From: Minutocellus sp. GHC0000111
Taxonomy: Eukaryota
Assembly (NCBI GenBank): GCA_977018835.1
Contig: OZ361256.1
Location: 1,860,001 to 1,924,000 of the forward strand
Direction: 5' to 3'
Length of the DNA: 64,000 nt
Numbering within the stretch: position 1 is the first letter of the stretch; each line of letters begins with the position of its first letter. This document shows, piece by piece, positions 56,188-62,400 of the stretch. The notes under the pieces are model-generated. The model saw only the letters and a list, made by a program, of their open reading frames with translations, was not told where the DNA came from and did no database searches. The position numbers and the translations under genes are program-made.

Positions 56188-59184
56188 ATGCCGTCCCGCA
56201 AGAAGACCGTGGCCGATCTGGCCGATGCCGACCTCAAGGGCAAGAAGGTCCTTGTTCGAGCGGATCTGAACGTTCCCCTGGATGTGAGTTTCTTTCGTCA
56301 TTGTCTGGCATCACATCCGTCGAGCGATCTTCGAGACGCAAGCGAAATCGCCAAAAGAAAGAAATCTTTTGGATCTTGTTTTGACGCATGAGGAACATGC
56401 GCATCAGCAGCGTCAAGTCAGATCCAAGCACACCGTTTCGATTTGATGCCTTTCTCCAGGGAGCAACCGATACTATCTTGCGCTGACAAGTCAAGTCGAT
56501 TTGGTCGACGGGCGGCTCATACGCATCACGAACAAATAAGTGTTGGAAAATTGTAGCGGATGCGGATAAATAAGTGATGATGGATGCGGACGAAAGAAGC
56601 TTTTTGATCGTCGCTCTGCCCTCCCTTCCATTCTCACCGATTGGCTGTCTCACACACGTTCATTGCGTTTTCTCTGCAAATTATCATGATACGTGATATG
56701 CTCGCATTTGCATTAAAAACAAAACAGGGCAAGATCATCACCGATGATACCCGCATCCGCCGTTCGATGCCCACCATCGAGTATCTTGTATCCAAGGGCG
56801 CCATCGTGACCGTATGCTCCCACCTGGGCCGTCCCAAGGATGGTCCGGAGGACAAGTTCTCTCTCCACCCCTGTGCTCTGCGCATGGGCGAGCTTCTCAA
56901 GAAGGAGGTCAAGCTCGCTCCCGATTGCATCGGCGATGCCGTCCAGGAGATGGTCGGTGCCGCCAAGGAGGGTGATGTCCTCATGCTGGAGAACACCCGC
57001 TTCTACAAGGAGGAGACGAAGAACGAGGAGTCCTTTGTTGCCAAGCTGGCCGCACCCTTCGACCTCTACGTCAACGATGCCTTTGGGACTGCTCATCGGG
57101 CCCATGCCTCCACGGAGGGCGTGACCAAGTTCCTCAAACCGTCGGTTTCGGGCTTCCTCCTTGCCAAGGAATTGGAATACTTGGACGGGGCCATTGAGAA
57201 TGGAGAGAAGCCCATGGCTGCCATCGTCGGTGGGTCCAAGGTGTCGTCCAAGATTACTGTTCTCGAAGCCCTTTTGGACAAATGTGACAAAATCATCATC
57301 GGCGGTGGTATGGTCTTCACCTTTCTCAAGGCCAAAGGCCTCAGCGTCGGCACCTCCCTCGTCGAGGATGACTTTGTCGACACCGCCAAGGCCGTAATGG
57401 AAAAGGCCGATAAATTGGGCAAGGTCATCCTCCTACCGTCCGACATCGTCGTGGCCGATGCCTTCTCGGCCGATGCCAACACCAAGATTGTTGCCGCCGA
57501 TGCCATTCCTGACGATTGGATGGGGTTGGACAATGGACCCGCATCGACTGGCGAGCAGAAGGAGTTTCTGTCGGACTGCAAGACTGTCATTATGAACGGT
57601 CCGCTCGGCGTCTTTGAGATGGAACCCTTCAGCAAGGGAACGTTTGGTATTGTCAACATCCTTGCCGACTTGACCAAGGAGTCTGGGGCCATTACCATCA
57701 TCGGAGGTGGCGACTCCGTTGCTGCCACCGAGCAGTCTGGCAGAGCGGGCGATATGAGCCATATTTCGACTGGTGGCGGCGCCTCCCTTGAACTGCTGGA
57801 GGGAAAGCAGCTTCCTGGAGTTGTTGCTCTGGATGACTTTGTGGACGAAGCCTCGGCCGGTGATGCCGCTACGGCCTCCGGTGGTGGTACCAGTATGAGC
57901 CTCAAAAAGAAGACTCTCGCTGATATTGACGTGAAGGACAAGCGAGTTCTTATGAGAGTGGACTTCAACGTGCCGTTCGACTCAGATGGTAATATCACCA
58001 ATAATCAGCGCATTGAGGGTGCTATTCCCAACATCCAAAAGGCCCTCGATAATGGAGCAAAGGCTGTCATCCTCATGTCGCATCTCGGCCGTCCCGACGG
58101 CAAGCCCAACAAGAAATTTACGCTCGAGCCCGTCGCCAAGCGTTTGGGTGAGCTCATGGGCAAGGAGGTTAAGTTCCTTCATGAATGCACCGGCATCATT
58201 GTCGAGGAGTCTTGCAGAAATCCCCCTCCTGGATCTATAATTCTTTTGGAGAATGTCAGATTTCACGCCGAGGAAGAAGGGAAGGGAATCAAACACGCTT
58301 CTGGATGTCCCGGCAAGAAATGCGGTGAGGCCTGCACTAAATTCAAGCCCTCCGAGAAAGAAATTGATGCCTTCCGTGCTTCATTGTCTCAGCTCGGCGA
58401 CGTGTACGTATGCGATGCCTTTGGTACTGCCCACCGCGCACACAGCTCGATGGTGGGAATGCAGGGCAAGATGCCCTGTGTTGCCGGACTCCTCGTTGGT
58501 AAGGAGCTCAAGGCGTTTTCTCAGGTAGTCGGAGAGAGCGTCGAGCGACCCCTTACGGCCATTGTGGGCGGAGCCAAAATCAGCGACAAGGTTCTTGTCA
58601 TTGAGAACCTCATCAAGCAAAGCGATGCCATCATCATTTGCGGAGGAATGGCGTACACCTTCTTGAAGGAATGCAGCGGCATGAGCATTGGCAAGTCATT
58701 GTATGATAAAAAGGGAGCGGAATTGGCTCCCAAGCTTGTCGAGCAGGCCAAGGCCAAGGGTTGCAAGCTCGTGTTCCCTTGCGATTGGCTTTGCGGTCAA
58801 GAATTTTGCAACGATCAGGAGACCAAACTAGTTACCCAGGAGGAAGGAATTCCCGATGACTGGGAGGGCATGGATTGTGGGCCGGAAAGCATGAAATTGT
58901 TCCGAGATCAGGTCATGGAAAGTAAGACCGTTGTGTGGAATGGCCCGGCTGGAGTATTCGAGTTCGACAACTTTTCCAAGGGCACCAAGGCCCTTCTCGA
59001 TGCCGTAGCCGAGCTAGCCCAATCTGGAGGTAAGGGTATTATCGGTGGTGGTGACAGTGCAACTGCTGCCGCCAAGTGGGACATGGAGGACAAGGTCACT
59101 TTCGTCAGTACCGGCGGTGGAGCCTCTTTGGAGCTGCTGGAAGGGAAAATTCTTCCTGGCATTGCTGCTTTGGATGACCTCTAA
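56188..59184 (+). CDS. PGK: Tandem double phosphoglycerate kinase (PGK-PGK fusion), ~850 aa; intron 56284-56727
   Basis: Exon 1 [32 protein letters not shown], then GTGAGT...CAG, then [10 protein letters not shown]. Two complete PGK motif sets (D[L/F][53 protein letters not shown]). Confidence 0.95.
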
Positions 59185-59405
59185 CTAATGACGAGATCAA
59201 TGTAGATCTATTTTTAGATATAGTATATCGAGGAATGATAGAAAGGCAACATAGAGCAGCATAAGCTGCGGTATTTGAATTCGATGATATAAATTAATTG
59301 TTTACAAATCTAATTTGGCACTATTTGTAGCAATACAAAGATTTTGTTGTTCTGAAAAGAAATAATGAAATAAAAGGCGGGACGAACACAAGAGATTAGG
59401 AGTCC

Positions 59406-62400
59406 CTATTGTCGTTCTCTTTCATCGCCACCACCGATGCCATCGGCGTCGTTTGTCGTTTCGTGATCTGCATCGGCGATGATGCTATTATCATCCTGTT
59501 CGAACAAGTTGGCAGCACCGCCGGGCTGATCAACCAGTTGAACGGCGCCACCACCGCGCGGAACGCCCGTAAAGACTCCGGCTAGGACTGCTTCAACAAC
59601 ACCCTCGGCAGACCCTCGTAGACGGAGCTCACGCAATAAGTCGCTGCGCTCATATTGAGGAAACATGTCGGTCAGTGATTCCAGTGCGGCGGCCTCCTCC
59701 TCCGGATTCATTGGCACAACGCCCGAGAGAATTAAAAGTCGACGCCAAAAGGAAGTCTCTCCTTGCTGCTGCCTTTGTTGATTAGGTCGCTCCGGCGGAT
59801 TGACATCACCGGCGCTGGCAGCGACTGCTCGTTGATTTCCAAGTCCCCCGTTGGCAGGTGGCCTCCTTACGATCTCGAAAGACAGCGCCGGAATTGGTAT
59901 CCAGTTTGGCAAAATATTTTCTGTAGAGAAGCTGAACAGGGCCTGATCCCGAGCGTCCTGTTGCTGGCGAGCTTGTTGATTCGGCGCGCCATCTGTGTCC
60001 TGTTGTTGCTGAGCATCGTTCTGTTCTCCCTGATTAGCTTCGGCTCCATCTCCGGTAACGGGAGCATTTCTTTGCCCAGGTTGTGATCCGTCAAGAATGC
60101 AAGCTCGACAAAGCGGACATTTCGCCGCTTCGATACTTCTTGCTCTCTCGACTACCTCTCTCAAACAGTGAGTATGATAAAGATGGCCGCAACCTACCTT
60201 CTTTACGTTGCGTAGGCCAGACATTGTCCCCAAGCAAACGGAGCATACATCACCCGCCGCCAATGATTTGCGAAGCTCAAGTTCGGTAGCATCAGAGAAG
60301 TGGGAATCGAGCGATTGGGCAATGCGGTTGAGATTACGTCGTTCGCCGATCTTACGGCCCATGGCAGACACTGCTGAGTGGAGATGCAAGGCGAGGACGC
60401 TATCAATAAGGCCAAAGGACACCCCGTGGAGGCTGTGGTTAAATGCGAAAAATATCACGAAAGTAGGCGGGAAGGACGAAGTGTGAGCAACGGAATAATG
60501 ATATGCACAAGCTAAAAACCCACGAAGATATCTTACCTCCAATTGTGAAGAAAATGGCAAATGGTGAGGAGGTACGCTGCGAGCTCTAGACTAAAAACGA
60601 CGCTGTCCAGGATCGAGAGGCGTCGGCAATGGAGAGATTCCAAAAGCTCAATCCGCCGGTCAATGAGCCGGCTCTGTTGATGGGCTCTATCGCGAGGGTG
60701 CGTTGGCTCGTCAACGATGAGCGTAGAGCCCACGACGTGAGTATCGTCACCGGTGTTGGTCTCGGTGGATGTCACATTATCGTCCAAATCGTCTTGCCCG
60801 TCGGAGGCAGTCGAAGAGGAATTTCTAGCCTCATCTCCCAGTCGAAGCTGCTCCTCCTCCAAGGCGCCAACCTCGGCGGAATGCTTCTCCTCAAACATTT
60901 GTCCAACGTGCCGAGCGATGTGAGCCAGCGTATCAACGGCCAGTAAGGCACAATCACAGGAAAGAAGCAAAACGGTGCCCCAACCAGCACCCGAGAACAG
61001 ACCGGCACAAAGGGCTGCGGCACAAAAGTCCGACAACAGAACGACGACAAGAAGGCGGAGGACTCCGGGCATCGGCGGGCTTCCGGACTGGGCAGCATGG
61101 CTGGTGGCCGTCCCGGCCAAGTGGGCCAGGGACCGGAGGAAGCTGAGGAGGGTGTACCAACTTAATAGGATGAGCAGATCGAGTGTATCTGGTTCAACGA
61201 CGGCCGACACAAGTAGGAGCTTGAAGAGCAGATAGCCTCCCAGACGCTCCCGATTGGACCGATTGAGGCGTGTGGGAGGCATCGGAGGCACGTCAGCTGC
61301 CGTGGGGGCGGTAGGTGCTGGTGCTGTTCCCACGGCCGGCGGGACTTGCCCTTGTTGCCGGTCCTGAGCGTCGGCGGTTGAGATGGCGGTGCCCTGCCCC
61401 TGTCCAGCCCCTCCACGGGTCCGGCCTCCTCCTCCTTGGCCAAGGAAGAATTCCGCCACGGCACCGTGCAACAGATACGTCGCCGCCAGCAGGAGGTTGG
61501 CAATGGCCAGCAGCCGCGGCGTCGAGGTGAGGACCTTGTCGACGACCTTGGTGAAGGATCCCGCTGGTTCGGCGGGAAGACTTCGGATGGACGGGTCGAT
61601 CATGGCACCCAACGTCCGTAGGAAGGTGTGGAAAATGCGACGCGGGGTCAGCTTCTCCCGCCGACGGGCATTGCGCTTGGTATCCTGCTGCTTGGTTTGG
61701 CATGTGTCACCACCATCGCCACTACCATTACCGCTGCATGTTGCATCGCTGTGCTTGTTCTTGATTTTGGCCTTGTCCTTGCCAATATTGCCTCTGCCAT
61801 GTTGTTTGCTCTTGCCCGCGTCCTTCTTGCCATGATCTGCCTTGTTGTTGTTGCTGTTCCGGGAATCACGGTCATCGCCCCTGTGCGAGGAGGGAATGTT
61901 GGGCCCCACCAACCACTTGAGTCCTGGCGGCAAAAGCTTTTGCGGCAAAAAGAAGAAGGACGCCGAGGGCGCGTCATCGCCATTGTCGTCTTGTCCCGTT
62001 GTTGCTGTTGTTGCCGAAGCATCCTTTTGATCACCGGCGTCATCTACTAAACCCTTGCCATTCCGCCCTCCTCCCGACAGTCCCAGCATGCCCTCCAAAT
62101 CACCAAGGAGAGAAGCGCCGATACCGCCACCGCCGATGCCATTATTGCCGATGTCATTGCCACCATCGCCGCGGGTGAAGAAGTCGGTAAAGGGCCGGAA
62201 CAGGTCGGAATACGACGCGGGTGGATTGAAATTTTTGCTATTCCCGCCAGTGTTCGATGACGAGGTATCAATATTTCCTCTTCCTTCTCCATGCCCTTTG
62301 CTGTCGCAGACACTTGCGAATTCTTGCCCGAATCGCCCACGTCTGTCACGCCCACACCTACCAGCGGCAACACATGCAAGGGCGGGGCCGTCGAGGTGAT

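Follow-up and report, generated by a model that had tools for sequence, protein, structure and literature searches.

The stretch of Minutocellus sp. GHC0000111 DNA analyzed here (64,000 nucleotides of contig OZ361256.1, hereafter the window) contains a gene in which two exons and a 444-nt intron encode an 850-aa product with two phosphoglycerate kinase (PGK) units, read from an ATG at 56188 to a TAA at 59182-59184 (Table 1). A first-pass annotation had described two full PGKs fused in one ORF; both PGKs do share one frame, but the ORF is interrupted by the intron. The C-terminal end of unit 1 (...VVALDD, 57837), the linker and the Met that begins unit 2 (57895) lie where that annotation had placed them. 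Upstream of the ATG at 56188 there is an in-frame stop, with no in-frame ATG between the two, and the fusion gene therefore lacks a presequence. The complete relatives P0128 (a transcriptome entry) and P0134 also begin at the PGK core, in keeping with the earlier remark that a targeting peptide is missing. No further PGK was found in the 64-kb window beyond the fusion gene.

Table 1. Features of the PGK fusion gene, with positions in the window
Feature	Position	Strand	Remarks and basis
Exon 1	56188..56283	+	96 nt, the first 32 codons of the N-terminal PGK, which has neither signal nor transit peptide; same exon in locus L006
Intron, 444 nt, GT-AG, phase 0, after codon 32	56284..56727	+	Spliced out in RNA contigs; same position in L006
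Exon 2	56728..59184	+	Remainder of unit 1, linker, unit 2, stop codon
Unit 1, 402 aa, diatom plastid-type PGK without presequence	56188..57837	+	84-88% identity to diatom plastid PGKs; tree; PDB match
Cys62/Cys81/Cys99 stretch, unit 1	56815..56928	+	Conserved among diatom plastid PGKs
Linker, 57 nt / 19 aa, Ala/Gly/Ser-rich, in frame, predicted disordered	57838..57894	+	Sequence; model of relative P0128
Unit 2, 429 aa, eukaryote-type PGK	57895..59181	+	Trees; model
His-x3-Cys-x4-Cys-x3-Cys loop, unit 2	58294..58335	+	Alignment pattern; putative metal-binding or redox loop

The Pfam family PF00162 matches the product twice (E 8e-288). Patterns for the substrate, ATP and catalytic motifs, with residue labels that we take to follow human PGK numbering, are matched 10/10 in each half in the window and in P0128 and P0134, while misses in other rows sit at truncated ends; the substrate and ATP motifs are thus kept in both domains, as first proposed. 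The model of unit 2 (pLDDT 90.5) superimposes on human PGK1 with a TM of 0.91-0.94. The full-length model of P0128 contains two PGK units, and its linker pLDDT of <50 and pTM of 0.49 (lowered too by an alignment in which only 11/51 rows cover unit 2) would fit independent units.

Splicing of the intron is seen in RNA contigs of runs X1, X10, X12, X19 and X20. Two sets of four runs were compared with the window. In the first set, the linker is bridged by one contig each in RNA runs X1 (study P1), X10 and X12 (study P4), with 0 gaps and 0-1 substitutions; in the second, it is bridged by a contig of the oligo-dT run X20 (study P11) that spans 57570-59162 with 115 substitutions and 0 gaps, and a contig of run X15 covers 57796 to 58493. 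The interval 57830-57900, for which spanning RNA had been proposed as a check, is crossed without an indel by contigs of three studies. All transcript evidence consists of assembled contigs, which cannot prove a single transcript or exclude an extra internal start. An assembly artefact or a misjoining of separate genes might be considered, since merged gene models may account for the tandem PGKs annotated in some plants and animals (P0011-P0014, P0017), but this is exceedingly improbable here: DNA contigs from two runs bridge the linker in addition to the RNA contigs, and diverged orthologues also carry the fusion. The fusion is real and conserved. One RNA contig of run X10 (4301 nt) extends from the PGK gene into a convergent RING-finger gene (window 59184-60590); the assembly may have joined the two genes, or their 3' ends may overlap.

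A variant copy of the fusion (a run X9 contig corresponding to window 58002-59040, and proteins P0125 and P0127) carries the changes L60F, S184G and V354E in unit 2, at sites conserved in 58/59, 58/59 and 59/59 rows, and in one run X9 DNA contig of this copy a single nucleotide is missing from a C run at 58222. The RNA contigs of runs X1, X10 and X12 agree with the window version and not with the variant copy. The latter may be a decaying allele or paralogue, and at least one copy may be decaying.

Ancestry of the two units

The two units are 42% identical, and at the DNA level have only one 45-nt stretch in common. In a set of 28 rows, a constraint that forces the N and C halves into a single clade is rejected (p-AU 0.00015). 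The first-pass annotation had argued against a recent internal duplication and named separate phylogenies of the two domains as the test; the low identity and the rejected sister status of the halves (AU p=0.00015) uphold this argument, and by these trees the halves derive from different PGK clades.

The best single-unit matches of unit 1 are 84-88% identical to it, and most have a signal peptide and an AF-type plastid motif. In a quick 47-row IQ-TREE analysis, the fused N halves nest in the diatom plastid PGK clade (41 rows, SH-aLRT 100), which includes Skeletonema, Ditylum, Minutocellus, Cylindrotheca and Epithemia, and a 282-sequence FastTree likewise puts them there. The best PDB match is the Chlamydomonas chloroplast PGK (7zy7). 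Trees and PDB match agree with the cyanobacterial/plant-type label first given to domain 1, placing it in the plastid, cyanobacterial-type lineage. A bipartite plastid presequence is absent from unit 1 in the window, L006, P0128 and P0134. Judged by these comparisons, unit 1 is a diatom plastid PGK minus its targeting peptide. Run X15 contains a second plastid-type PGK contig (record 9) beside the fusion contigs, and its similar depth (90.5 vs 81-96) is consistent with unit 1 being a duplicate.

The cysteines Cys62, Cys81 and Cys99 of unit 1 are occupied by C in 48/51, 44/51 and 50/51 rows, respectively. Counted from the KK start they are positions 58, 77 and 95, which we take to match the redox cysteines of Phaeodactylum tricornutum PGK. 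The P. tricornutum redox study of Bosco et al. in 2012 is said to use the cysteine numbers 58, 77 and 95.

Plastid-type PGKs without a presequence have also arisen elsewhere. In Conticribra they occur unfused (P0323, P0325, P0327 and P0328); Conticribra weissflogii also has the common cytosolic-type PGK (P0278, P0289). In locus L061 (8001-11355), a cytosolic PGK gene of the common diatom type lies 375 nt ahead of a gene for a plastid-type PGK that lacks a presequence and whose N-terminus (MGGKLSKRK) is a possible membrane anchor. The last intron and exon are nearly identical between the two L061 genes, which suggests gene conversion. L061 is an independent pairing, unfused and in the opposite order, and illustrates how genes can become neighbors before they fuse.

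Unit 2 is of the eukaryote type; among solved structures, mammalian PGKs match it best. In a tree of 53 rows (LG+C20), selected out of about 135 sequences of the eukaryote type, the C halves of the fusions (100/100) join the unfused PGKs of Thalassiothrix antarctica (P0237) and locus L019 (100/98), and this group joins seven environmental and four Rhodomonas-group sequences, two of them named (100/99); a wider grouping with Guillardia and Hemiselmis receives 80/84. The common diatom cytosolic PGK clade, sampled from Odontella, Thalassiosira, Skeletonema, Detonula and Conticribra with the P. tricornutum sequences left out, stands apart from the unit 2 clade (100/100). A joint clade of unit 2 and the common diatom cytosolic PGK is rejected (p-AU 0.0075; 35 rows, LG+G4), with diatom groups that were defined after the first tree was seen. 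Of the earlier description of domain 2 as animal/fungal-type and host-derived, the eukaryote type stands, but the AU test and the Rhodomonas grouping argue that it is not the ordinary diatom host cytosolic enzyme.

A loop with one His and three Cys is present in 41/59 aligned algal eukaryote-type relatives of unit 2, and is possibly a metal-binding (zinc) or redox loop. The loop has been lost repeatedly: P0299 and two of the three fusion clusters are among those without it. A short form of the loop, present also in L019, occurs in 10/59 rows, every one in the cryptophyte-linked group, and this confinement supports the placement of unit 2. The unit 2 type is shared by some diatoms and cryptophytes, probably through gene transfer, for which we infer a cryptophyte donor. 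Old paralogy with loss may be an alternative, since the cryptophyte-wide support is only 80/84 and seven of the neighbors are environmental. The environmental PGK clade adjoining unit 2 is abundant (P0205, P0206, P0209, P0037, P0212, P0220, P0271), with full-length members on metagenome contigs of up to 30 kb. A scan of viral contigs with the environmental relative P0209 found no relative, leaving a virus as carrier without support.

Conservation of the fusion

Proteins counted as fusions if one unit matched unit 1 and the next matched unit 2, with 80% identity or more in each case; 21 of the 421 stored proteins have this order. P0001 is the window protein and P0126 is identical to it; the 19 others fall in three 90% clusters plus one fragment. 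The linkers of the fusion relatives are 16-25 aa long and variable in sequence, with no common motif except at the ends. The N halves of the fusions are monophyletic (SH-aLRT 97), as are their C halves (100/100), and the branching of the two matches, from which we infer that the fusion arose once.

The orthologous locus L006, one of 80 metagenome loci, has the first intron in common with the window and one additional intron in unit 2, and three genes upstream are common to both, among them uL24 and TMEM220. For this one pair, Nei-Gojobori dN/dS is 0.11 in unit 1 (402 codons) and 0.038 in unit 2 (418 codons), and both halves are under purifying selection. GC3 is 0.72 in unit 1 vs 0.60 in unit 2, with the same trend in L006; because GC3 falls along the whole gene, this contrast was set aside as evidence of origin.

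P0129 consists of unit 1 alone, stopping just after the first linker residue, with 2 differences from the fused P0130; unit 1 can therefore stand alone. Both proteins are encoded on contigs of 27355 bases, and the two forms possibly sit on one contig.

A search of 50% representatives yielded no further mixed-type fusion in the six multi-unit or long matches checked, among 150 matches listed. Same-type tandem PGKs are common among the 421 stored proteins (65 bacterial, 23 plastid-type and 14 eukaryote-type), and a double PGK as such is therefore not rare. Some tandem PGKs have near-identical units (P0005-P0010, P0015, P0016 and others, some related to dinoflagellate sequences), and these may be polyproteins or assembly repeats.

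At the junction, 10 of the 19 unfused relatives of unit 2 listed start with M-S-M-[NS]-L, whereas the fusions read x-S-M-S-L, where x is never Met. Met 57895 thus corresponds to the conserved second Met, and the argument that an internal start has been retained is weaker for it. The first-pass annotation had called it a retained Met and a candidate internal start: the Met is present at the junction in 21/21 fusions, and both the window and L006 have a purine at -3, but the Met is weak evidence, as the first Met of the unfused relatives is not kept. No contig end or loose end occurs at the linker in the contigs of the first set of four runs (X1, X10 and X12 among them), although contigs cannot show starts, and contig depth, being unable to compare the halves, was left out of this evidence. 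That the locus additionally yields unit 2 alone, through an internal promoter or a start at Met 57895, is thus very unlikely.

Proposed origin and function

The product is probably a flexibly tethered cytosolic double kinase, in which two full PGKs of different ancestry, encoded in one spliced frame, would form an uncleaved chain of ~90 kDa with independent and active units. In the proposed origin, the plastid PGK gene was duplicated and the duplicate lost its targeting presequence; it would then have been placed upstream of a second, rarer eukaryote-type PGK common to some diatoms and cryptophytes, and loss of a stop codon would have joined both genes in a single event, before the three observed lineages diverged. 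The unfused unit 2 forms of L019 and Thalassiothrix (P0237) count for such a fusion of separate genes. Both units would catalyze the same reversible step between 3-phosphoglycerate and 1,3-bisphosphoglycerate, so that substrate channelling cannot be the reason for the fusion. Instead, the fusion would fix 1:1 co-expression and dosage of the two isoenzymes, and possibly pair two regulatory profiles.

It is conceivable, with somewhat less confidence, that the fusion is a neutral accident, in which adjacent genes merged and the activities are needed for dosage only, the linkage itself having no function. Unfused forms of both halves in other diatoms, the repeated origin of same-type tandem PGKs and the decayed appearance of one variant copy are in its favor, but lineages separated by dS of 0.7-1.4, with in-frame changes of linker length, all retain the open frame. 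This neutral reading is compatible with the tethered double kinase, and departs from it only in the reason for which the fusion is retained.

PGK is normally a monomer and the linker is predicted to be disordered, both of which would suit a polyprotein that, once translated in full, is split at the linker to release two monomeric PGKs. Such processing into units is described for the Euglena chloroplast PGK in the available text of PMC7729029, and some diatom fusion proteins are reportedly cleaved after translation (PMC2173943, consulted in part). However, the linkers of 16-25 aa vary in sequence, unlike the conserved decapeptide linkers that the same Euglena source describes (PMC7729029), and there is no plastid presequence to bring the chain to a stromal protease, making a cleaved polyprotein unlikely.

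Doubtful, too, is the idea that the halves are tuned differently, the plastid-derived half being redox- or light-linked and favoring sugar synthesis and the other half being glycolytic; an equally tentative extension sees a two-mode enzyme with both parts foreign, one being a redox-sensitive PGK of the Calvin cycle relocated to the cytosol and the other a metal-loop PGK from cryptophytes. Enzymes cannot shift an equilibrium, and a preference for one direction must arise from affinities or regulation. In favor of different tuning, the three cysteines in the N domain of diatom plastid PGKs are also present in unit 1 (although these may be retained for folding), L061 again has both PGK types as neighbors that lack a presequence, and both halves are conserved. 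In the portions available of the papers concerned, the P. tricornutum plastid PGK is reported to be redox-regulated (PMC3838966, PMC7378808), but another group found no redox regulation of PGK in four other diatoms (PMC7378808). If the two-mode reading were true, one chain would cover sugar synthesis and breakdown under different control, and the protein would be an isoenzyme fusion of separate endosymbiotic and lateral origin, offering a natural test of redundant isoenzyme retention.

After endosymbiosis, one of two redundant isoenzymes usually replaces the other. Here two distant PGKs were retained and joined, and the two types can be compared in one chain, one compartment and a fixed 1:1 dosage. 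In addition, the fusion suggests that plastid-type PGK has moved more than once into the cytosol of diatoms, and that diatoms have a second cytosolic PGK in common with cryptophytes. Both halves would carry out the same known reaction, and tandem PGKs as such are not unique.

A mixed or double PGK of this kind, for which a prior description had been raised as a possible limit on novelty, was not found described in the literature searched, which included few subscription journals and did not extend to supplements (e.g. the PGK trees of PMC6198282 and PMC11976288), and a fusion of two PGK isoenzymes of distant origin is apparently undescribed. The Euglena gracilis chloroplast PGK polyprotein resembles it in having complete PGK units in tandem in a single reading frame of an alga; according to the summary of Nowitzki et al. 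(2004) in PMC7729029, its units are nearly identical, plastid-targeted and cleaved, whereas the diatom-type fusion has 42%-identical units of different clades, no presequence and variable linkers. In the same source, Thermotoga PGK-TIM and the kinetoplastid multidomain PGKs likewise place PGK inside a larger polypeptide, but their partner is another enzyme or a sensor domain (PMC7729029).

The diatom and stramenopile fusions TPI-GAPDH, UGP-PGM and G6PDH-6PGDH, described in the accessible part of PMC2173943 with spacers of 8-25 aa and one mRNA, also join central carbon enzymes. The comparison with TPI-GAPDH drawn in the first-pass annotation is nevertheless a loose one, since fusions of this kind join different enzymes of successive steps, while the PGK fusion joins isoenzymes of one step. 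Diatoms otherwise have separate plastid, mitochondrial and cytosolic PGKs (P. tricornutum 29157, 48983 and 51125), as far as the available text of PMC2173943 and PMC5715807 goes. Unit 1 falls in the plastid clade of these enzymes and unit 2 has the broad eukaryote type that resembles animal and fungal PGKs, but the separate PGKs have their own genes and compartments, and unit 2 lies outside the common cytosolic clade as sampled, with P. tricornutum sequences left out.

The 794-aa double PGKs of Bacteroidales share the arrangement of two complete units head to tail, but both of their units belong to one bacterial clade, with an independent origin by duplication. The 65 bacterial double PGKs are found among P0022-P0119 and are about 794 aa long; three are assigned to Bacteroidota.
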